Virus record (IMG/VR): IMGVR_UViG_3300043464_002149
Source of the DNA: a virus
Taxonomy: Duplodnaviria > Caudoviricetes
Direction: 5' to 3' (one strand)
DNA: 64,000 nt
The notes beneath the pieces are model-generated. The model was not told where the DNA came from. It saw only the letters and a list, made by a program, of their open reading frames with translations, and did no database searches. The translations under genes were made by a program, and so were the position numbers. This document shows, piece by piece, positions 1 to 59,810 of this stretch; positions within the stretch are counted from its first letter, which is position 1, and every line of letters begins with the position of its first letter.

Positions 1-1403
1 ACACCGTTTGATCCGCCGTTACATGTTACGTTTGTTGTTGCGGATGCAGATACCGATATTGTTACATTCGTTATGTCAATATAAATTACTTGGCTATGCG
101 TCAAGCCGCCGGCATCCATACTACTAACTTTTATTATGTAAATGCTTTTTGTTTCATAATTAAAAACTGCTTTAGATTTTAAAGATGTGCCAGTAATAAT
201 AAAACTGTTATTATCTGGATATGTTGATGTATCAACTAGTGAATATGTAAAAGTATCTCCAGCATCAGGGTCATCCGATGATAACGTCCCAATTGTTGTA
301 CCTGTTGGCACATTTTCAGAAATTGAAGCCGAAGACAAATATATGTATGTTGGCGATTCATTAACATTTGCAATAGGTACTGTTACCAAACCATCATATG
401 TTAAACCACCAGAATCTGTTGTTCTTACATTTATTGTATAATAATTTTTTTCTTCGTAATTGAAAATTTCTTTTGATGTTAGTGTTCCTTCAGAAGTTAA
501 ATTAAATTTATTATTATCTGGATATGAAAAACTATTAATTAATTGATATGTAAAAGTATCACCACTATCAGTATCTAATGTTGATAAAGTACCAACTGTT
601 GTTCCTGTTGGACTATTCTCTGATATAGATCCATTAAGATTAATACCATATGGTGCTTCATTTACACTAGTAATATAAATTGTAAAAGTTTTATCATAAA
701 ATAACCCACCTTGATCTGTTGATCTAATTGAAATTGTATATGATGATCTAGCTTCATAATTAAATGATTGTGATGCTCTTAATGAATCATCAGAAATATT
801 AAATGAAGACCAATCTAAAGTTTGATTAATAGCATATGTGTGCGTATCACCAAATGTGTCAGAAGTAGTTAATGTACCAATAATCGTGTTTATTGAATTA
901 TTTTCATTAATGGTATCATTACTTAAATAAATATCTTGTGGCGCCGTGTTTGTTGGTGTCGGGGTTGGTGTTGGGGTCGATGTTGGTGTAGGTGTGGCTA
1001 AAATCACATCAATATCAAATGTACACGTTGGTGTAGGTGTAGCCGTTGGGGTGGGTGTTATTGTAGGTGTCGGAGTGCTAGTCGCTGTTGGCGTTGATGT
1101 AGCTGTTGGTGTAGACGTTGCTGTTGGTGTAGATGTTACCGTAGGTGTTGGGGTTGGTATTGGTAAAATATGTGTATCTGAAATTGAACAAGCAAGATCA
1201 GTATTGTATAATATTATTGTTGTAGCTTCGTTTGGTACCAATACAGAAACACCCTCTATTAATTCACTATATGTTAAACCTGTTGCTGGTAGTGAACTTG
1301 AATACAAATCAGCATAGTTACTAGGATTTACTGAATCATAGTAAACATTATATGGTCCTGGGGCGGTTCCTGATGTTATTGTTACATTAAACTGTCTAGC
1401 CAT
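1..1403 (-). CDS. Adhesin/tail-fibre protein, truncated by the window edge: Thr-Pro linker, three cadherin-like repeats, start of an SprB-like repeat
   Basis: Absent from the ORF track because its stop lies outside the window. Hand translation from ATG at 1403 gives MARQFNVTITSGTAPGPYNVYY..., then a TP tract with one [10 protein letters not shown]. Three repeats follow, of the form I-x-EN-x-x-x-x-T-x-[IV]GTL...F[ND]YE-x-x-x-x-Y-x-I-x-[IV]-x-x-x-D-x-GG. It ends ...ATTNVTCNGGSNG at the edge. Confidence 0.85.
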   Translation of the reverse strand, partial: MARQFNVTITSGTAPGPYNVYYDSVNPSNYADLYSSSLPATGLTYSELIEGVSVLVPNEATTIILYNTDLACSISDTHILPIPTPTPTVTSTPTATSTPTATSTPTATSTPTPTITPTPTATPTPTCTFDIDVILATPTPTSTPTPTPTPTNTAPQDIYLSNDTINENNSINTIIGTLTTSDTFGDTHTYAINQTLDWSSFNISDDSLRASQSFNYEARSSYTISIRSTDQGGLFYDKTFTIYITSVNEAPYGINLNGSISENSPTGTTVGTLSTLDTDSGDTFTYQLINSFSYPDNNKFNLTSEGTLTSKEIFNYEEKNYYTINVRTTDSGGLTYDGLVTVPIANVNESPTYIYLSSASISENVPTGTTIGTLSSDDPDAGDTFTYSLVDTSTYPDNNSFIITGTSLKSKAVFNYETKSIYIIKVSSMDAGGLTHSQVIYIDITNVTISVSASATTNVTCNGGSNG

Positions 1404-1417
1404 TACCTATATAATTA

Positions 1418-4400
1418 TTAATTTTGTACATTACAAAGAGATAAATTGTATCCCAAAGTATTCAAAGCGTTTATTATTGTGTCAGCATAATATTGTGCTG
1501 TAGATCCTGCTGTTACATCTGACACCCATGTTACCTCATTCTTATCTGATAAACCATTTGTTCCGCTATATGCGTTTGTTCCGTTTTTAACCGCTTGGAT
1601 AAATTGTCTAAACCCATCATAACTATTTGGACCAGTGTTTACTCTGAATATAATACCTCTATAATAATTACTATTTGGAACATTATCTAGTGTATTTCTA
1701 AATGCTGATATATCGGTACTATATTGACCTGCTCTTACGCTAGTATTAAAGGAACTACCATCTGCATTATATGGTGAAGATTCATCTTGGAATACCAAGT
1801 TTATAACTTTAGTTGTTGTTTGTGTTGTTCCTGTTGTATTCATCACATAGAACGTTCTTTCTGTACCTAATGATTTACTTGAGAAATTATTAACAGTTAC
1901 ATTTTGATCATACTTAGCATAATTTCCATTATAGAATTGCACTAAACAATCTCTAAGTATTGTATTTCTCATTGTTTCTAATGGTGACAATGTACTGTTC
2001 ATAGATCCCGAATCATCAAACCAAATGAAAATTTGTGTGTTTTCATCTATTTGAATTGGCGGAACCTCCTCAACTGCTGCATTAAATGAACAATCAGGTG
2101 TTGGTGTTGGTGTAGGAGTATCAGTAGCCGTTGGCGTTGGTGTACTAGTCGCCGTTGGTGTAGGTGTTGGTGTAGACGTTGCTGTAGGTGTTGGTGTAGC
2201 CAATGCTATATCAATGTCAAATGTACACGTAGGTGTTGGCGTCGCTGTTGGGGTCGGTGTTATTGTTGGTGTAGCGGTTGGTGTAGGTGTACTTGTCTCC
2301 GTTGGTGTTGGTGTACTAGTTTCAGTTGGTGTAGGTGTACTAGTTGGTGTTTCAGTTGCAGTCGGGGTTGGTGTTACCGTTGCAGTTGGTGTTGGTGTAA
2401 CCAATGCTATATCAATATCAAATGTACAAGTTGGTGTAGGTGTTTCAGTTGGTGTTGCGGTCTCAGTAGGCGTTGGCGTAGGTGTTTCAGTTACGGTTGG
2501 GGTTGGTGTACTAGTTGGCACTGGTGTAAGTGTTGGTGTCTCAGTTGGGGTTGGCGTAGGTGTTGCTGTTGGTAACACAACATCTATGTCAAATGTACAT
2601 GTCGGCGTTGGTGTACCCGTAGGTGTTGGTGTAGGTATGATTACATCCACATCAACATCAAACGTACACGTTGGTGTAGGTGTTGCTGTTGGTGTTGGTG
2701 TAACGGTTTCTGTTGGGGTTGGTGTTGGTGTAACCGTTTCTGTTGGTGTAGGGGTTGCCGTAGATGTGCCAGTTGGCGTAGGGGTTGGTAACACGACATC
2801 AATATCAAAAGTACAAGTTGGTGTAGGGGTTCCCGTTGGGGTTGGTGTAGGTATAACTACATCAACATCCACATCAAACGTACATGTTGGTGTAGGCGTA
2901 CCTGTCGGGGTTGGGGTTGGTATGATTATATCTACGTCCACATCAAATGTACAAGTTGGGGTTGGTGTTCCCGTCGGGGTTGGGGTTGGTATGATTATAT
3001 CTACGTCCACATCAAATGTACAAGTTGGGGTTGGTGTTCCCGTTGGCGTAGGTGTTGCCAACATAATGTCAATATCAAACGTACATGTTGGTGTCGGAGT
3101 GCCTGTAGGTGTTGGTGTAGGAATAATAATATCAACATCCACATCGAAAGTACATGTAGGTGTCGGTGTTCCCGTTGGTGTTGGTGTAGGAATAATTATA
3201 TCCACATCTACATCAAAAGTGCAAGTAGGTGTTGGTGTTCCTGTTGGTGTTGGGGTTGGTAATATAACGTCAATATCAAACGTACACGTTGGGGTTGGTG
3301 TTACAGTAGTTGTAGGTGTAGGTGTCGGTGTCGGCGTTGGAGTGACTGTTGGCGTCGGTGTAGCTGTCGATGTTGCAGTTGGTGTTGCTGTAGGTGTCGA
3401 AGTAGCTGTGGCAGTCGGTGTCGGGGTTGGGGTTACAGTCGGTGTTGGTGTTGGAACAAATATTGGATAACTGTCTCCACATGAAACCGCCGGTGTAATC
3501 ACACCACATTCTGTTGTATAATTTCTAATAGGATCTTCAACTGGTGATGTACAACATATTTGATCAGTATAGAATTGACTTATATTTTCATTTAATCTAT
3601 TAAATTTATCATAGGTATGTTGTGCTAATATTTGTGCACTATCATTACCATTAAAAATAATTAAGTTCTGTGGTTGTGTTCCATTAACATTTATATTGTA
3701 ATATAAATTATTTTCACAGTAATCTAAATTAACAGCAACAACCTCTAATAATTCACCTTTTTCGGTAATTAAAAAATCACCAGTATCGTAATAATCAGAA
3801 GGATAATAACAACAAGGCTCTTCTTTACTCTCCGGTTTTAATTGTAAAAATTCTGGAGATCTAGAATCAAAGAAATAACCATCTCTTTTTGTTACTCTAT
3901 ATTGTGTTTCATCAACTTCTTTATTTGTGTAAACTCTTAATTTTGTTGTCGGTAAAACTTCAATAACAACTTGAGCACCATTTACTGTCATAGCAGTAAT
4001 TGTACTTTTTTTAACCGACCCTAAACAATCAATATCGTTTATTGTGTATGTTGAATAATCATAAGAAAATGAATAATCATTATTTTCATTTGCATATTCA
4101 AATATACTTGATGGGAATGTTGAACAGCTTAAGTATGTTGCTCCTAATACAATATTTCCGTTAACTAAGTCTTTTACGTTCTTTCTAACTAAAGTCCCAG
4201 CGGATATATAATTTGTAATATCTGCAGGTGTTGTTGAACCGTTGATTGTAGCACCGCTAACAACTAAAACTTTAGTATTGTGTTTTAAACCATAATTAAA
4301 ACTATTTCTATATTGTACTTTTGGTACTAATGTATATCCAGTATTAACAATTAATGGATAATCTGGATTTTCAGTTGGATATTCAACATATCTAAGTGAG

Positions 4401-7400
4401 AGTCCTTCTATTTTTACTTTTTTATCACAGTTAGCTGCATCGGTAAAAACTAAATCAATAACATCATCTTCTCTTACGTTAGTTAATCTAAACTTACAGT
4501 TCTCATTAAGAACTAGTGAAAGATTTACATCAGGATATATTGAACTATAACCACTATAAATGTTATTACCAGGTGTACAATTTCTTTGTACATAAATTCC
4601 CCAACCATTATCATTTCCAGATTGTACTGTTGCACCAGTAACGGTAATGATAATATCTGAAATAACTTTACAAGTCGGATAACCACTATATGTGTGACAA
4701 ATCGTTTCAAACTGTAAATCTAAATCACATTTTGGTTCTGTATATTTGTAATCAACATCAAAATAGAAATCTAAATTATCTTTAACTAAACATTCACCAG
4801 AAGAATTTGTGTGTGCAATAAATTTAACTTTCTCAATACCATCACTATCTGTGAAAAATTCATGAGATATTAATTGTGTATATCCACTAGTGATTGCTGT
4901 TGTTGGAACATAAGTTGGTGTATTAAAAGCACTACTTTGTGTTTCTGTTTGATTAATTTGGTTAACTAATGAAGTTATTGCGCTCTTCCAAGAGGTTTTG
5001 ATTGTCGTTAAATCTAAATTAATCCAGTTTTTATATTCACATACAAGTGGTATCTTACTTGATGAGGATGTTAAAGTTGTACAACTTTCATTTACTGTGA
5101 ATCCTGTACCAAATAGTGTACTACCAGTTAAATTAACTTTAGTTGTTCCACTATAATCAGCACCATCAATATCAATGTGTAGCGTAAATGTCACACCACT
5201 AAATTCTATTAAACCTCTTAAGTTATCTGGATCACCAAGTATGGTTTCAAGATCTTCTTCAATAACTGTTTCAAAATTAGGATATAGATTTTCAACAACT
5301 TCTAATGGTTTACATGGTTTTCTATATGAAAACTTAGGTCTACCAAAAATATTATTCTCTATTAAATTTCCACCCATCCATAAGGTTGTCGATGGAATTA
5401 TTTGTTCCAACACACTAGACCAATATGGACTCATCTGATTAACGAAATCAGATGTTGAAATCATATCATATGTTGTGTATCCAGAAGCTGTTAATTGATT
5501 TAAATAATCTTGATATACATCTTCTAGTGTGATATAATTTTTCTTATACTTTACTAAATTTGAATTAGTGATTTGATTAGAAAAAGTATTTTGTAGATAT
5601 TCTGCAAACGTAAAACCAGTTTGTGGCTCAAGGCTATTAGTACCAAAAGTAACTTCTAATTCTCTGGATTTTCTCCAAATATCATAGTTAATAGCATTAG
5701 CCGCCGAAACAAATACGTTTATGTTTTTTCTGTTAAGAATTAAATTAGATAAATTTTCATCTTCTAATATTTGACCCTGTACATTATCTATTTCACTATT
5801 AATTGTGAAACCATAATCCAAACCAGAAAGTGTTCTATAAACATCAAAATAATCCTCACCATATGAATATGGTTTTGATTTTGTTAATAATGTTTTTGTT
5901 CTACCTGTTATAACTGATGATTCTGTATCTAAGATATCAGAAGATCTATGATCTAATGATACATTTGACCAACCAGATCCCATTTGGAAAAATATATTTT
6001 CCTGATTAGTCGTTGGGGATTTTGGTAATAAAGAAATATCGTTTACAGGATAATCACTTATCTGGTTATTTGTTGTTAAACCAGTTAATGATGATAATGT
6101 GTATGTGTATGTGCTACTATTAAAAGTTACACTATTACTTACTTGAATATTATTTAAGGTGTTTGTAATATCATCTAATGTAGATGATGGTAACGCACTA
6201 TTAACTTTATAAACAAATTCATCAATTTTAACCATCGGTTCCGGAGCACCGATGAACTTTAAGAAAAATTCAATACTGCTTCTGGTTCCTTTTGATTTAT
6301 ATATAAAAGCTAAGTTAACTAAAAGTCTTCTATAGAATTCTAATTCAGCATCAACTAAATTCTTACCAATGGATTGACCATCATATGTCACAGAAGATGC
6401 ATTATAAATTTGTTCTTCTAGTGATTTTTGATCAAATAAATTAATTGTGTTTAAACCAAGAGTGTTTGCTAGATTTTTAAGAAAAACATCTGGGATGTTA
6501 TCTATTGAATCATACGTAACATTTCTCATGTACGCAATATTATCAATATATGATTTTACTTTATCAAAGCTTTGACCATATAGTTGGAATATTTTGTCTA
6601 TTTTTTGATCTTCAGTATCGAATTCAAATAACTGTGGTGCAACTAAAAATCTTGTTACTAAATTAGATTTATAATTGTCAATCTCTGTCGCTAAGTCATT
6701 TAATCGAGTAAGATATTCATCAAACTTTAATCCGGTAATTTGTATATTGTATCCATCAGATGATGTAGGCCAATTTACTAATACTGAAACTAGTTCTGTT
6801 TTTGATTCATCTAGACTTGTTTTTGGTACAGTAAATCCTGCTTGGTATATCGGATATGTATCTCTATTTAATAACGTTTGTTCAAGATCATCTAAACCTA
6901 AGTAAAACTCTTCAACAACACTATCATTAGGTCTTAAAATAAAACTATCTGAATATGTTGAACCGGTAAAAGGTTTTCCGGTAACAGATAGTGTAACTTG
7001 ATTAAAACTATCAGGTTTTATGTAATTGCTTACATTATAGTTTTTACCATCAACAATTATGATATATTTCTTATATGAAGAAAATAGGTTTCTAATTTTA
7101 TTTTCAGAATTTATTGCTTCATTTGCTGTAGGCTGTATTAAAGCAATATCAAATGGATTAAAAAATCTACCAATTTGTACTGTAAATGATGTTCTATTTG
7201 TTGTAGGGTTGTATGTGATATTTTCTGCGGTATTATCAGTTACAACTGAAAGCGCGTCTTTATCAATTAAAATACCACCCGGGAAATTTTTGATTATTCG
7301 AGCAATAGAAACTCTAATTCTTTCTCTTAAAGAACCAAATAAAGATTTAGATGCATCTTTTTTGTTTGTATTAAATCTTACCGGTCGTTTCTTACCATCA

Positions 7401-7636
7401 GATTGTACAACTGTTGTAGGTACATCCTCTTCTATTTTAAGATTTTCAAGAGTTATAAAGTCTGAAAATGGCGCAGTTTGGAATTTTTTAGAGTCTTTCT
7501 CTGGCACAACCCTATCTAACGCAAAGTTCGTATTAGTCAATTGACTAGTACCGTCAGTAATTTGTCTTCCAACAATACTGTCGCTAAACGTCTCAAAACC
7601 ACTAGCTGCTTGACTCGGAACTTTTCTTTTTGCCAT
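1418..7636 (-). CDS. Giant virion structural protein (2072 aa): long Thr-Pro region with CTFD repeats and a C-terminal vWA-like domain
   Basis: ORF track. About 450 aa of PT linker; C-terminal [11 protein letters not shown] matches the vWA MIDAS DxSxS motif; lies in the baseplate-distal gene cluster. Confidence 0.8.
2095..3465 (-). repeat. Coding Thr-Pro tandem repeat with 12 CTFD[IV]D[IV] units
   Basis: Visible in the translation. Includes a perfect 2 x 69-bp duplication at 2904..3041. Confidence 0.95.
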
Positions 7637-16325: not shown

Positions 16326-18158
16326 TTAATATGTAGTCGTGCCTAATGTTTTTACCCTTATTTTAATATCTTTCTGAGGAAACCTGATTTGGAATATTTG
16401 GTTAGCCTTCATAAAGACTGTCATATCACTTTGTAGAATCTCTTTTGTAGCTGTATCTTTATAGGATTGTGAGACTTGTGAAGATGAATATTCGCCGCCA
16501 ATCTTGTTATAAACTCTCACATCTATCACGTTAACAACACCTGGAACATTATTCACATCTTTCATTAATTCACCAACAAATAATGGATCACCCATTTTTC
16601 TTTTATCAATTGAGAAATAATCTGTTGTTGCGCTAATCACATCTCTAATAACTTCACCCTGATTTTGATTTTTATCTAAAAGTAGGTCAATTTCTAATCC
16701 CATGTCAATAACCTCACCACTAACAATATCAATATAGTCGTTAATCATTCTATATTGTGAAAGGTAATTAAGAATATTTTGTTTTAATGTGTTAGAGACA
16801 ACACTTGTTAAATTACCGCTTTGGTCATATGAAAGTAATTTTACTCTTACTTTATTATCTTCCTCCATCACATTTACCTTAGCTGGCGCACCATAAGTAG
16901 CTGGCATTGTTTCAATCATTGATTTGTAATCATTTAATGTTACAGCTCTATTTTGAGCAGCAAAATTATAAGATACCATTGCTCTAAGCTCTTCTACTGT
17001 TGGTTGGTCTGAACCGCCCACAGCTGGTGTAATGTTTGTCACACTTAAAGATTGTGAAACTTGACTATTTGTATTTGAATTTGGACCTGTGATAATAAAA
17101 TCAGAGTTTTCTACGTTATTAATAACACCAACCCCAACATTACTTTCTTTACCCCCACCAATTCTATATTTTATAAACAACGTAGTATCTTGTTTTGGTA
17201 TAGAACCTAATGAAAGATTGTTCAAATATGATGATAAATTCACTTTTAATTTATCAGTAATATAATTGTCTAAATTATCTAATGGATCAACATTACCAGA
17301 ACCAAAAGTTAAAAAGAAATAACCTTCTGGTGTATATTCTGTGATAAATTTATTTTGTACAGCTACATATTCACCAGCTTTAAAATTAGCCCTATCAGAA
17401 ACTGAAGTTGTACTTGGTACGAAAACTTTATCTTGAACCAAAGATTGTACTTCATACCATTTATTTGGGTCACCAATAAATTCACTATATGCTGGATTAC
17501 CAACAAACGATGTACCTTCTTTATGAATTACCGCCGAAACACCTAAAACGTTTCTTTCTGGTAAAAATATTTTTAAGAATGGTCTTTGTTCTTGTTGTGT
17601 AATAACCTTTCTGAATATTTTTGTGACCCCATTAACAACAGCTTCTCTTTTTACAATAGTATATGAAATTAAGTTATTGTTGTTATCAATGTTTGGTAAT
17701 TTAAGTCTATTTGGCTCGCCTTTGCTATTGAATGGATTTGAAAAATCAATATCTTCAATTGTTTCAAAAATTTGTCCGCCCCCAGAAATTTGAGCTCCGG
17801 CTCTTAAGATACCTTCATATCTGTCATCATCTTTATCTCCCTTAACAGGAACGTTAATACTAAAATCACATAAAGCAACAGAGGGTCTTTGACCAGGGAT
17901 TCTTATACCATATGTTTTTGCAATATGAAATAATGATTGTCTTTTTTGAGCAAAATCTAACATGGTTTCTTGCCAAACCCTATCAATATGAAAATGAAGG
18001 TTGTCAGAAACCGCTGCATTTAAATCCAATAATACAGAGTAAATTGACGCGTCATTTGTATTCTGTATAATATCTGGATAATATTCTTTGGTTAAATTTA
18101 CTAGGTCTTGTCTTAGACCAGCAAAATCTCTATTAGTATATGCTATCTTTTTGCTCAT
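16326..18158 (-). CDS. Baseplate wedge subunit (T4 gp6 / baseplate J-like)
   Basis: N-terminal YTNRDFAGLRQDL and the AVGGSD...FAAQNRAVTLNDY motif typical of gp6/J; adjacent to gp25. Confidence 0.85.
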   Translation of the reverse strand: MSKKIAYTNRDFAGLRQDLVNLTKEYYPDIIQNTNDASIYSVLLDLNAAVSDNLHFHIDRVWQETMLDFAQKRQSLFHIAKTYGIRIPGQRPSVALCDFSINVPVKGDKDDDRYEGILRAGAQISGGGQIFETIEDIDFSNPFNSKGEPNRLKLPNIDNNNNLISYTIVKREAVVNGVTKIFRKVITQQEQRPFLKIFLPERNVLGVSAVIHKEGTSFVGNPAYSEFIGDPNKWYEVQSLVQDKVFVPSTTSVSDRANFKAGEYVAVQNKFITEYTPEGYFFLTFGSGNVDPLDNLDNYITDKLKVNLSSYLNNLSLGSIPKQDTTLFIKYRIGGGKESNVGVGVINNVENSDFIITGPNSNTNSQVSQSLSVTNITPAVGGSDQPTVEELRAMVSYNFAAQNRAVTLNDYKSMIETMPATYGAPAKVNVMEEDNKVRVKLLSYDQSGNLTSVVSNTLKQNILNYLSQYRMINDYIDIVSGEVIDMGLEIDLLLDKNQNQGEVIRDVISATTDYFSIDKRKMGDPLFVGELMKDVNNVPGVVNVIDVRVYNKIGGEYSSSQVSQSYKDTATKEILQSDMTVFMKANQIFQIRFPQKDIKIRVKTLGTTTY

Positions 18159-18159
18159 A

Positions 18160-18615
18160 TTATATGTTAATAATTACAAAGTCAGAACTAGAAAAAGTCC
18201 CATTATTTGTTGTGTAATCGATTCTTATTTTTGCTGTGTATGGTTTTGTAGATCCATCCCCAGTTCTAAATAATCTGATATCCTCATCCTCACTAATACT
18301 TGAGGCACCGTCTTCTGGATCAATATCAGGATTAGTTATTTTTATTGAGTTTATTTCTAAATTAGGTATATAAATTTTTACTGTTTCTCTAATCTCGTCT
18401 TCAATACTGGTATATGTAATTGAGTCATTTAGATCAAAAATAAATTCATATAATCTAGTTCCGAAATCTGGTAAAAAATATCTACTACCCTTTCTTGTCA
18501 ATAATAAATGAATAAGATTTGCTCTAATCTCTTCATCCTTATTAAGGGTCATTCTAGTATAGTCACCTAGGGTGCTATTTCTAAAAGGAAAATCTATGCC
18601 ATATTTAGTAACCAT
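18160..18615 (-). CDS. Baseplate wedge / sheath initiator (gp25/GPW-like)
   Basis: GIDFPF...IRANLIHLLLTRKGSRYFLPDFGTRLYEFIFD is the gp25 signature. ATG at 18615 is preferred over TTG at 18633 because the TATTTAT box lies at 18620..18626. Confidence 0.9.
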   Translation of the reverse strand: MVTKYGIDFPFRNSTLGDYTRMTLNKDEEIRANLIHLLLTRKGSRYFLPDFGTRLYEFIFDLNDSITYTSIEDEIRETVKIYIPNLEINSIKITNPDIDPEDGASSISEDEDIRLFRTGDGSTKPYTAKIRIDYTTNNGTFSSSDFVIINI

Positions 18616-18652
18616 AACAATAAATATAAACAATACTAAAATGGATATAAAT

Positions 18653-57161: not shown

Positions 57162-59810
57162 TTATAGTCCATATTTTGATTTACTTGTATTGTAGTTACC
57201 CAAAACCTGAGATGCGGTCAATGCACTATTATACACTCTAACTATACCAACACTACCATTTAACCATTGAGGGAATTGACCACCGTTAAACGAACCAATA
57301 TATAATGGACTTGTGGTATTTTTAATACTATTAAATGTGTGTGAAGTACTTCCAATTAAACTACCATTAATATACAACGCTAAAGAATTTGTTGATACAT
57401 TTGTCCACACACCTACCACTTGATACCAAGTATTAATACTTAAAGTGGACGATGTTGATGTAACACCCGCAGAACCGTTTGCCATTTCCATATATGTATT
57501 ACCGTTGGAAAGAGTTCTCAAACCATACCCCCAATCCGCCGTATTACCACCATCAGTTTTTGCAATAAGAGTTCTAGTTGCTCCTGTAATTGTTGATTGA
57601 TTTACCCACATTTCTATTGACCAATCACCAGCTGTTGGTTCCAATATTGGATTGTCAGGAATTGAAATTTGTGAAGAGGTTCCGTTAAATGTAAAGTATG
57701 GTGATGTGAATGTTAAATTTGACATCGTTCCGTGCATACCCACACCACTTAAATCATTAATAGTTGTTCCGGTACCCGGATAAGATGATGTGTTAGATGG
57801 GTCATAATGTAAAATTAAACCATTTGTTGTGATACACGCAATAGTTATTGACTTCGCAATTATATTTGAAGGGTTTTCAGTTTCCCTTACAGCCACCCAA
57901 AACGTTCCACTTGATGCTGGAATTAATAAACCAGAGGCTCCACCAGTAATAGGTTGCCACGTAGATGCGTTAAGTGCAGCATTTTCTGTTGTAAACGTTC
58001 CATTACTATATTGGTAATTATTAGATGCCGAACCAACGAAATTACTAAATCTAATTGAACCATTATTTTCACAATTACCTGAAATTGAGAAATTTAATGG
58101 AGGTATGGTCGGTGTTACTGTAGGTGTGCTCGTTGCAGTCGGGGTCGGTGTACTCGTTTCAGTCGGGGTCGGTGTACTCGTTTCAGTCGGGGTCGGTGTA
58201 CTCGTTTCAGTCGGGGTCGGTGTACTCGTTTCAGTCGGGGTCGGTGTACTCGTTTCAGTCGGGGTCGGTGTTGGAGTGCTTGTTTCCGTAGGGGTCGGTG
58301 TTGGTGTACTCGTTGCCGTTGAAGTAGGGGTTGGGGTCGGTGTAGAACAAATCCAAGTAGTTACTGAACTATTATAGTTTTGTAAAACATCTGAAGATGA
58401 AATCGCACCATCCCATATTTCTAATCTACCAAATTTTAATGCAGAATATGAACCATCGCCTAAGTTTGTACTATCTGCGGTGCCTATTGCATAATATAAA
58501 CCATTACCACTTTGGTATGGTGCTTGTCTAACAACTGTTGATGAACCAGCACTTTGACCATTTACATATGCGGTTAAAGTTGTATTGTTCTGTACAAATC
58601 CAATATAGTACCAATTATTAAGAGGTGTCGATATTGATGATATTATTTCACTACCATATGGCCAAACACTAAACTTTAATGCTCCACTAACCATTTCAAT
58701 TTGTGAATCGTGCCAACCAATGTTTAAAACAGCACTACCTTGTTCACTCAATATTACACCATTATCTGTTAAATAAACCCAAAGAAATATAGATGTATCT
58801 GTAGAATCATAAAGTGTATTAATTGAGGTGTTGGTTAAAATATATTGACTGGTACCGTTCAACACTATTGACGAAGTACATCCATCATTTTGATATGATG
58901 GTGAACCAATTATACTTGCATTTGTGTTACCCAAAATGTCCGTAACCGTTGTTCCACTTCCAGAATATGATATTGAATCATTTATGTTTAAGTCAACAAT
59001 TTTGTTATATGGAACTATTGTCGGTGTTGGTGTCGGTGTTGGTGTACTCGTTGCAGTTGGTGTCGGTGTTGGTGTACTCGTTGCAGTTGGTGTTGGTGTA
59101 GGTGTACTTGTTGGGGTTGGTGATGGTTGTAATAATGAATAACTTAAATCGTTATTTGGTATTAATGTGTATGATAAATCTGTGTTTGGTATTAATGTAT
59201 AAGTAAAATCATTATTTGGAATAATGACATATAGTAAATCATTACCAGGAATAATCACATATGTGAAATCATTTTCTGGTATAGATGGTGTTACTGTTGG
59301 TGTTGGCGTTGCTGTAGGGGATGGGGTAGGTGTTGGTATTGAACAAGAAACATCACCACAATCTAAAACGACCCTTAAATCATCTAAATCATAATCAAAT
59401 TCTGAGCCTAAATCAAGACCTACAATTTCATAACATACACCATTTCCAAGACTATATATTATTCCTGTTAACCCACTTGTTAAACTTCTACCTATTTTAT
59501 TGTGTGTTTGATCACAATCCCTTAAAAAGTAATAATAATATGCTATTTGAGTTTCGGTTGGCGTCGGTGTAGGTGTCTCTGTTGCCGTTGGGGTTGGTGT
59601 AGAAGTCGCAGTTGGTGTTGGGGTCGGCGTTGGTGTTGCGGTATTTGTTGGTGTAGGTGTACTAGTAGCCGTAGGTGTGATAGTAAATGTAGGTGTAGGT
59701 GTTGGGGTAATAGTAAAAGTGGGTGTGGGGGTCGGTATGACTTGACCATCATTAGGTCTAACCACAAAAATTCTTGTTGCTCCAACTCTTGACGATATTT
59801 TACTAATCAT
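57162..59810 (-). CDS. Lectin-like tail/fibre protein with two LamG (ConA-like) domains and Thr-Pro linkers
   Basis: LNNWYYIGFV..N.TLTAYVNG...LEIWDGAISSSDVLQNY and INTWYQVVGVW...LALYING...GSVGIVRVYNSALTASQVLGNY. Confidence 0.85.
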   Translation of the reverse strand: MISKISSRVGATRIFVVRPNDGQVIPTPTPTFTITPTPTPTFTITPTATSTPTPTNTATPTPTPTPTATSTPTPTATETPTPTPTETQIAYYYYFLRDCDQTHNKIGRSLTSGLTGIIYSLGNGVCYEIVGLDLGSEFDYDLDDLRVVLDCGDVSCSIPTPTPSPTATPTPTVTPSIPENDFTYVIIPGNDLLYVIIPNNDFTYTLIPNTDLSYTLIPNNDLSYSLLQPSPTPTSTPTPTPTATSTPTPTPTATSTPTPTPTPTIVPYNKIVDLNINDSISYSGSGTTVTDILGNTNASIIGSPSYQNDGCTSSIVLNGTSQYILTNTSINTLYDSTDTSIFLWVYLTDNGVILSEQGSAVLNIGWHDSQIEMVSGALKFSVWPYGSEIISSISTPLNNWYYIGFVQNNTTLTAYVNGQSAGSSTVVRQAPYQSGNGLYYAIGTADSTNLGDGSYSALKFGRLEIWDGAISSSDVLQNYNSSVTTWICSTPTPTPTSTATSTPTPTPTETSTPTPTPTETSTPTPTETSTPTPTETSTPTPTETSTPTPTETSTPTPTATSTPTVTPTIPPLNFSISGNCENNGSIRFSNFVGSASNNYQYSNGTFTTENAALNASTWQPITGGASGLLIPASSGTFWVAVRETENPSNIIAKSITIACITTNGLILHYDPSNTSSYPGTGTTINDLSGVGMHGTMSNLTFTSPYFTFNGTSSQISIPDNPILEPTAGDWSIEMWVNQSTITGATRTLIAKTDGGNTADWGYGLRTLSNGNTYMEMANGSAGVTSTSSTLSINTWYQVVGVWTNVSTNSLALYINGSLIGSTSHTFNSIKNTTSPLYIGSFNGGQFPQWLNGSVGIVRVYNSALTASQVLGNYNTSKSKYGL
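58138..58270. repeat. Perfect 24-bp VNTR (about 5.5 copies) encoding TETSTPTP
   Basis: Unit gtcggggtcggtgtactcgtttca is identical at 58138, 58162, 58186, 58210 and 58234, with a partial sixth copy. Confidence 0.95.

Follow-up and report, generated by a model that had tools for sequence, protein, structure and literature searches.

What does a ten-residue strand do when it is repeated along a Thr-Pro thread at the edge of a phage baseplate? The question is raised by IMG/VR record IMGVR_UViG_3300043464_002149 (Duplodnaviria; Caudoviricetes), of which we analysed a stretch of 64,000 nucleotides (nt), hereafter the window. Two adjacent genes at one end of it encode a protein of 2072 amino acids (aa), P0001, and a cadherin protein, P0002, which share a short Cys-bearing unit set on Thr-Pro linkers that we call the bead. 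With about even confidence, we read the bead as a pairing and cross-linking node that makes a floppy tether a stalk of adjustable length.

By its translation, P0001 consists of three parts: a core, the Thr-Pro bead array, and a C-terminal globular head of about 215 aa (Table 1). A regular-expression scan found 12 exact CTFD[IV]D[IV] units and one degenerate DCSFNAAV, exactly as an earlier note on this sequence had counted them, and the single copy that it placed in the cadherin protein is there as well. The units are separated by Thr-Pro linkers, also as described, and the same exact 12-residue spacer precedes 8 of the 12. At the DNA level, a degenerate pattern for CTFD[IV]D[IV] matched the window 13 times, always within P0001 and P0002, and never in 100 shuffles. 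The tether (aa 1394-1848) holds 178 Thr and 110 Pro; the slightly longer array region (aa 1394-1855) holds 32 Asp and 31 Val, and its sole Cys residues are the 13 of the beads. Tandem Repeats Finder reported periods of 69 and 201 nt. Two subtypes occur in the window, a short CTFDIDVxL[PA] and a long CTFDVDVD[IV][IV]IP. At the position of the degenerate bead, relatives read DCTFEASF or NCDFTATV, ahead of their heads.

The 13 window copies differ at most of the synonymous sites (proportion of synonymous differences, pS, 0.71, near saturation) and hardly at the nonsynonymous ones (pN 0.07, and 0 at C, T, F, D, and D). Since pS is saturated while pN stays this low, purifying selection acts on the bead peptide itself. 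The units are 60-87% identical in DNA, except for beads 5 and 6, whose DNA is identical and which therefore represent a recent 69-nt duplication.

No curated family covers the bead or the array, in agreement with the earlier note, which recognised none. For the array (aa 1394-1856), no Pfam-A family matched P0001 at E up to 0.1, the PT repeat PF04886 included, and the core had no Pfam match. A phmmer search of PDB sequences with the core and with the C-terminal head gave nothing meaningful. In an ESM Atlas feature search with the core, all clusters returned were viral and without a name, and the best score, 0.84, fell short of the recognition level. The only PHROG match of P0001 is phrog_15511, of unknown function, at aa 1779-2021, where the array ends distally and the larger part of the head lies. 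A literature search found the bead strings in no paper. We also considered a link to a 'moraphage' paper (PMC12619734), which could not be tied to the window lineage. Thus, the bead is new to Pfam, PHROGs, PDB sequences, and the literature.

The core has at least 197 homologues, with 42-97% identity and lengths of 1272-2974 aa. Many stop at the end of the core (about 1412 aa). In others, a Pro-Thr (PT) linker leads on to a head of varying type (vWA, cadherin/SprB, discoidin, LRR, or DUF285), and further ones close with an acidic tail that is short and conserved. Only the closest lineage has the strict CTFD string, and pattern scans of IMG/VR and JGI metagenomes found no strict-motif arrays outside close relatives. 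A generalised unit, [DN]-C-x-F-[DEV]-[VI]-[DT]-[VIL]-[DN]-[IV]-x-TPTP, is present in 41 of 121 core homologues, or 41 of the 84 that reach at least 1500 aa, with 1-13 copies and core identities of 46-97%; neighbouring adhesin genes carry it too. When nine arrays were aligned, Cys and Phe did not vary in their columns. The bead consensus is T-P-[ND]-C-[DE]-F-D-V-D-V-D-[IV]-x-T-P-T-P. Acidic and hydrophobic residues alternate in it, so that one face is fully hydrophobic (C, F, V, V, I) and the other acidic ([DN] at -1, D/E at +1, D at 3, 5, and 7); the window lineage has Thr in place of two acidic positions. Conservation is not limited to recent local duplication, the outcome that would have spoken against the earlier note, because the bead is kept to 46% core identity and is under the purifying selection described above. 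The search across related phages that the note proposed did reveal variation in copy number, even between phages with 97% identical cores.

The cysteine is part of this conservation. Segmenting the PT extensions into short non-PT islands without regard to Cys gave 406 islands, of which 361 contain Cys and 321 contain C-x-F; none of the 406 is a Cys-less bead. The exceptional islands are window-type beads whose Cys was counted as linker, or low-complexity linker variants rich in Ser, Ala, or Gln.

We found no bead arrays in host proteins when scanning 185,579 species genomes, which yielded two single matches and one related phage contig of 248 kb. The single matches are exact bead strings in giant surface proteins of a Saprospiraceae metagenome-assembled genome (MAG; L020, protein of 1932+ aa) and a Myxococcales MAG (L021), seemingly at the ends of Ig-like repeats. 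An origin of the bead in host proteins is unsupported: by our estimate these matches are at about chance level, and we take them as coincidence. On the sequence data scanned, the bead is restricted to this phage group.

Bead spacing differs from that of a regular repeat. Start-to-start distances run from 21 to 237 aa with a median of 39, never below 21, which corresponds to a bead plus 11 linker residues. The spacing widens from the core, or baseplate, end outwards in 25 of the 26 proteins with at least five beads (P0004, P0021, P0047, P0059, P0103, and others; sign test 8e-7, for proteins that are related to each other). The gradient could come from a gradient in stiffness or from linker growth with age. 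An age gradient found only marginal support, with a best match to another unit of 0.79-0.82 for two distal units vs. about 0.85 for units of the proximal part. Some proteins have just one bead (the cadherin protein and P0008-type proteins); together with the irregular spacing, this means that a unit works alone and needs no fixed period.

AlphaFold2 (AF2) predicts strands for the beads, as expected from the proposal of the earlier note that each unit is a β-strand too short to fold alone. Run on an eight-bead part of the array with a 9-row alignment, it made each bead a strand of 9-11 residues, in an unreliable fold (predicted local distance difference test, pLDDT, 52; predicted template modelling score 0.41); the remaining four array models scored 31-42. 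In this best monomer model, all eight strands must pair mutually, which is what would be expected if the beads of one chain stacked on each other as a solenoid or parallel sheet. The chain would return through the PT segments, and the result would be a rod, compact or extensible, like that of curli. The shortest linker, at 11 aa about the length of a bead, would be just enough for a parallel return. We consider such an intrachain spine improbable, however: the model is of low confidence, the spacing is irregular and graded, a spine would suit just the regular proximal part of the array, proteins with one bead exist, and stacked Asp ladders would repel each other without bound cations. A homotrimer prediction with three four-bead chains scored 0.02 against a mark of 0.42; as it was run without controls, it counts neither for nor against the pairing of chains.

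The other candidate partner of the bead is the small N-terminal β-sandwich of the cadherin protein, hereafter the N-module. It has 234 cluster representatives, is almost always N-terminal, and ends in ..IILYN..C plus about eight residues, usually followed by PTPTPT. Exactly one Cys is present in 101 of 114 N-modules, and in 111 of the 114 a Cys opens the last strand, always at one alignment column. This strand has the signature of the bead, C-x-hydrophobic-x-hydrophobic and then P-TPTPT. Cores that lack an array have a lone cysteine as well: in 18 of 20 (P0051-P0090, about 1412 aa, ending ...EPTNEELS.S..GC) there is a Cys within the last three residues. A conserved lone Cys at the very end of a baseplate protein is unusual, and it may be a point of covalent attachment. 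We considered whether these cores end in a 'proto-bead' and rejected it, since the ending ...GQYYID..C....EPT.EEL....C has the terminal Cys but no bead pattern. Altogether, lone boundary cysteines in virion surface proteins point to intermolecular disulfides, or possibly to metal sites. Disulfide-linked phage tails have been documented (PMC10811340, PMC13576161).

For P0002 (aa 1-160, with 114 homologues), AF2 gave the N-module sandwich a pLDDT of 93-97 and the first linker 54-58, and it made the bead a strand at aa 129-135 with a pLDDT of about 78. Only about nine rows of the alignment carry the bead, so that misaligned passengers are not the cause of this confidence. As modelled, the bead would be added as an extra strand to the N-terminal sandwich of its own chain, because the N-module strands are the sole possible partners and because structural matches of the model to eight-stranded sandwiches span residues 1 to about 140. 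A Foldseek search of the PDB with the N-module plus bead found no match at E up to 0.001, and its pilin matches had E of 0.25-1 and a TM score of 0.15. In a wider structure search, the N-module was a generic small β-sandwich (FnIII, C2; Z about 5, range 4.5-5.3).

These models bear on the scaffoldin-like system proposed in the earlier note, in which each bead would be a donor strand inserted into the N-terminal sandwich of a neighbouring adhesin and locked by a Cys-Cys bond, for multivalent and possibly branched display. The strand addition in the cadherin protein, the sandwich matches that extend over the bead, the single N-module Cys opening a bead-like last strand, and the lone Cys of array-less cores all agree with it. 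Three findings speak against the beads as required docking sites of such a scaffoldin: they occur in just 8 of the 150 best N-module representatives, phages with array-less cores still encode several N-module and PT-linker proteins beside the core –so that N-modules must have another docking site– and the array-bearing proteins have heads of their own (vWA, cadherin/SprB, discoidin, LRR). Moreover, AF2 readily sets an amphipathic strand that lacks a partner against the free edge of a sheet, the matches to donor-strand-complemented pilins are not significant, and the model was read without coordinates or predicted aligned error. We therefore rate docking of this kind as rather unlikely. The same modest standing goes to its covalent form, a plug and socket in which a bead, or the Cys-ended C-terminus of a core, inserts beside the last strand of an N-module and the lone cysteines bond; nor do we put more weight on its corollary, that the baseplate could in this way assemble a multivalent, possibly branched bush of interchangeable adhesins. 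Plain PT linkers suffice in many homologues and in most N-module proteins, so the beads are optional and not required for N-module docking.

A further argument for a shared partner comes from comparing genes within one genome. In each phage examined, the big protein and the neighbouring N-module proteins carry the same bead variant, while variants differ between lineages: both genes of L022 carry NCDFDVDLNIATPT and ENCEFVVTVDIATPT, and both genes of L023 carry LDCNFDVDVDI. Bead type is also discordant with the core tree, with the window bead nearer to the DC[NLT]FDVDVD of 50-64% identical cores than to the NCEFVIDTVAVI of sister cores that are 83-89% identical. Two explanations fit this uniformity: a common partner constrains the beads, as docking to a co-evolving partner would have it, or the adhesin genes travel together as a cassette. 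Recent gene conversion is unsupported, since the arrays of different genes in one phage have 62-75% nucleotide identity and longest exact runs of 21-44 nt.

Comparison of close relatives shows the arrays as joints. Strict-motif arrays occur in Ga0181343_1000216 (one and the same record as the IMG/VR contig), JACCDP010292420.1, and Ga0181343_1000545, and in these the locus is divided into three genes. Gene A has the core, 9-10 beads, and an acidic tail (...CDMTYEIVE...GESFIGDEN..IIEE); the middle gene is fibre-like (493 or 266 aa); gene C begins with an N-module of 75 aa, which is followed by 4-5 beads, DCSFNAAV, and the head known from the window. P0001 corresponds to the front of gene A joined to the end of gene C within shared units, at about 2733-2864, and the acidic tail, the fibre gene, and the N-module of gene C are absent throughout the window. 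The fusion of core, array, and head in the window could possibly be a misassembly by repeat collapse, but a fused core, array, and vWA-like head occurs independently in P0007, P0060, P0103, and the 248-kb contig binned as Flavobacteriaceae. Depending on the strain or lineage, the same head thus belongs to the core protein or has a gene of its own. In the relatives, two beads are present in the cadherin protein, vs. one in the window, and P0003, with a 97% identical core, has an array that differs in unit count and order. These differences show the arrays to be sites of rapid gain and loss of units and of head exchange.

Headless arrays close with a conserved acidic C-terminal peptide of about 40 aa, ..CDMTYEIVE.xQGIITENGESFIGDEN.NI.IEE, seen in L001/L002 (Ga0181343_1000216, nt 2391-2520), L017:2060-2175, P0003, P0005, P0006, P0047, and P0049. 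Similar tails (..LLQEDNG.I.DE.G.NL.QE) end the tiny N-module proteins P0165 and P0219. By its distribution, the acidic tail would fit an attachment site for the following fibre, as the window lacks both the tail and the next fibre-like gene. A relative of the missing fibre gene, L022:16311-18497, comes directly after the gene of the big protein in a distant relative and encodes a fibre-like protein in which the conserved N-terminus MALIKVSELN is followed by over 100 aa of collagen-like G-S/T-S-G triplets (GSSGTSGSSG...).

If arrays are joints, the bead itself might be debris: a strand remnant from the end of a domain, amplified together with the PT linker and kept mainly as a recombination joint for head swaps. 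N-modules do end, and heads do begin, with strands that look bead-like, arrays mark points of gene fusion and splitting between strains and lineages, and one pair of units was duplicated very recently. Nevertheless, C, F, and D never change despite saturated synonymous sites, all beads among the 406 islands have their Cys, the bead persists to 46% core identity, and a DNA identity of just 60-75% between arrays is poor for homologous recombination, which together make this origin quite improbable.

The acidic face raises one more possibility, that an oligomeric stalk holds Ca2+ or a transition metal on its axis through the Cys and the Asp row of the beads. The tip of the T4 long tail fibre (gp37) holds on-axis iron ions bound by His, which is our analogy here. 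In favour, one face of the strand is all acidic and the Cys is invariant; the window lineage, however, has Thr where two acidic residues would stand, and neither a family match nor a structural model speaks for a metal site. We regard metal nodes as very improbable.

Returning to the pairing and cross-linking node, the bead would be an amphipathic β-strand of 9-11 residues, with C/F/V/I on one face and D/T on the other, that punctuates the Thr-Pro tethers by which the baseplate of a family of freshwater jumbo myoviruses holds adhesin domains. It would pair by β-sheet addition with another strand of like kind. This could be the identical bead of a sister chain, or it could belong to one of the small N-terminal sandwiches, in which the last strand shares the Cys-x-hydrophobic signature. 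With the virion in oxidising lake water, an intermolecular disulfide would follow at the one invariant Cys. The floppy thread would then become a stalk, with bead number and spacing setting its reach and stiffness, and the arrays would double as joints at which heads are swapped, fused, or lost. We infer the strand pairing, the disulfide, and the mechanical role. Since the bead cannot fold alone, such a node is its most likely function, and conservation to 46% core identity, invariant C and F, purifying selection, the lone-Cys pattern, and the predicted strands are consistent with it. So are the single-bead proteins, the outward widening of the spacing, the changes of copy number and head placement between strains, and the disulfide-linked tails documented in other phages.

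Several points weigh against the node. Pairing partner, disulfide, and oligomeric state are all putative, and as a monomer the array is modelled poorly by AF2 (pLDDT 52). Pairing of identical sister chains alone leaves the lineage-specific bead residues shared across a genome unexplained, which inheritance of the whole gene block as one cassette could account for. One Cys per chain cannot fully pair in a trimer, and phage proteins fold in a reducing cytoplasm, so that any disulfide must form late. Finally, plain PT linkers serve many homologues and most N-module proteins.

Several known systems resemble parts of this arrangement. In cellulases and scaffoldins, long Thr/Pro spacers –PT(S) linkers– likewise join an anchor to binding modules, vary in copy number and length between strains, and are modular and readily recombined. 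Unlike the phage arrays, they have no embedded conserved Cys-Phe strand, and docking is by folded cohesin and dockerin; neither P0001 nor P0002 has a Pfam match to cohesin or dockerin, and the sites proposed here are strands of 10 residues, not domains. The human IgG3 hinge and other Pro-rich hinges are extended Pro/Thr-rich segments in which repeated Cys link parallel chains, and the number of repeats varies between alleles and sets reach and flexibility. The IgG3 hinge has CPxC pairs, no amphipathic strand, and a dimer, whereas the phage bead has one Cys within an acidic/hydrophobic strand, and the disulfides and oligomer of the phage arrays are putative. Gel-forming mucins (PTS tracts with CysD) and plant extensins (SPPPP with Tyr motifs) are Pro-rich rods interrupted by cross-linking elements. 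In contrast to the bead, CysD is a folded domain of about 110 aa and extensins link via Tyr, and both are glycosylated secreted proteins and not parts of a virion.

In chaperone-usher pili and the SpyTag-SpyCatcher pair, a short strand with alternating hydrophobic residues completes or extends an Ig-like sandwich of another subunit, and SpyCatcher locks it covalently. The bead has a donor-like alternation, and the AF2 model adds it to a small sandwich. The N-module, by contrast, is predicted confidently on its own with its own terminal strand, there are no usher, chaperone, or isopeptide residues, and the structural matches are generic only (Foldseek E of at least 0.25, Z 4.5-5.3). As in curli CsgA and β-solenoids, short strand units are repeated where the array is regular, at about 20-23 aa each, and AF2 stacks them into a sheet (pLDDT 52). 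Unlike CsgA, the phage arrays have an irregular and graded period, Pro-rich linkers, single-unit proteins, and no Gln/Asn ladders, and the range and outward widening of the spacing are not those of a regular β-solenoid. All these analogies are functional only, and we assign the bead to none of the systems named.

The features of the locus are listed in Table 1. P0001 and P0002 lie at the distal end of a T4-like baseplate module, with the gene order gp25-like, gp6/J-like, proteins of 1271, 591, 277, 419, and 305 aa, P0001, and the cadherin protein. The gp25/W and gp6/J homologues are adjacent and in the same orientation, the gene order is kept in four relatives, and the baseplate wedge families phrog_219 and phrog_6 are matched within the module. 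A ribonucleotide reductase and a DnaB-like helicase are encoded upstream of it, and the GC content of the window is about 31%. The nearest isolated phages are Flavobacterium myoviruses, with a gp6 identity of just 27%, and homologues of P0001 sit on metagenome contigs of up to 345 kb; for these reasons, the window phage is taken as an uncultured freshwater jumbo myovirus, which probably infects Bacteroidota.

Table 1. Features of the bead locus and its baseplate neighbours, with positions in the window
Feature	Position (nt)	Strand	Position in protein (aa)	Remarks
P0002 gene (cadherin protein)	3-1403	minus		next gene downstream of P0001; reading frame runs off the window
P0002 second PT linker, then cadherin repeats	3..995	minus		PF00028
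P0002 single bead	996..1025	minus	127-136	10 residues
P0002 first PT linker	1026..1154	minus	84-126	
P0002 N-terminal β-sandwich module	1155..1403	minus	1-83	lone conserved Cys72
P0001 gene	1418-7636	minus		2072-aa product (open reading frame list, translation)
P0001 C-terminal head	1421..2068	minus	1857-2072	DDSGSM (DxSxS-like) motif
Degenerate bead CSFNAAV (DCSFNAAV)	2072..2092	minus	Cys 1849	abuts the head, no PT linker after it
P0001 Thr-Pro tether with 12 Cys-strand beads	2093..3457	minus	1394-1848	
Bead 12 core	2207..2227	minus	1804	short
Bead 11 core	2408..2428	minus	1737	short
Bead 10 core	2579..2599	minus	1680	short
Bead 9 core	2648..2668	minus	1657	long; assigned to the interval (about 2733-2864) where the gene A-like and gene C-like parts meet
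Bead 8 core	2795..2815	minus	1608	short
Bead 7 core	2864..2884	minus	1585	long
Bead 6 core	2933..2953	minus	1562	long; recent 69-nt duplicate of bead 5
Bead 5 core	3002..3022	minus	1539	long; DNA identical to bead 6
Bead 4 core CTFDIDI	3065..3085	minus	1518	short
Bead 3 core	3134..3154	minus	1495	long
Bead 2 core CTFDVDV	3203..3223	minus	1472	long
Bead 1 core CTFDIDV	3266..3286	minus	1451	short
P0001 conserved core	3458..7636	minus	1-1393	non-repetitive; ends right before the first PT linker
gp6/J-like gene	16326-18158			PF04865, 26.7 bits vs. cut-off 21.1; phrog_219
gp25-like gene	18160-18633			PF04965, 43.6 bits vs. cut-off 27.2

Among the heads, the cadherin protein has three PF00028 matches (80.2 bits vs. 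a gathering score of 28.8). The head of P0001 (P0001:1850-2072) has no Pfam vWA match, and neither has that of P0007; the equivalent head of homologue P0103 passes PF00092 (31.1 bits vs. 23.8). From its motif and this homologue, the P0001 head looks vWA-like.

The 248-kb contig CBFHJJ010000001.1 (L026/L027) belongs to a related jumbo phage and was binned with a 'Flavobacteriaceae bacterium' MAG, which is either bin contamination or a hint of the host. It encodes N-module proteins and the same baseplate core, here extended by 14 beads and a vWA-like head.

Elsewhere in the window, an 882-aa protein (57162-59810, minus strand) has three long Thr-Pro linkers without beads. Concanavalin/LamG-like domains occur in it twice (PF13385, E 1e-32), and a 'DL.Y.LIPNN' segment is repeated. 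The window phage thus has plain PT linkers beside beaded ones, and the gene of this protein accounts for a bump in GC at 58-60 kb. The plus-strand open reading frames at 2214-3470 (418 aa) and 946-1317 (123 aa) encode VGVGVGV... and are mirror-frame artefacts of the Thr-Pro repeats, not genes.

This analysis adds the fusion and splitting of genes at arrays between strains, the selection statistics, the family-wide spacing gradient, and the lone-Cys pattern, together with the AF2 model of strand addition and the evidence that N-module docking does not need beads. Tail-fibre and baseplate adhesins determine the hosts that a phage reaches, and for very large aquatic phages this raises the question of how 'fishing lines' that are both long and adjustable are made. 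The bead is compact and strictly conserved, combining one Cys and one Phe with a row of Asp within ten residues, and a large group of uncultured phages holds hundreds of copies; its copy number shifts between near-identical strains, and its arrays mark the points of adhesin-head exchange. If the bead cross-links, it would be a new way to make a disordered linker a tunable stalk. If instead it docks to the N-terminal sandwiches, protein engineers would find in it a minimal plug and socket of natural origin, a phage analogue of cohesin-dockerin or SpyTag-SpyCatcher made from a strand of 10 residues. Either way, the bead merits a family definition, as the proteins that carry it are now annotated as low-complexity 'hypothetical proteins'.

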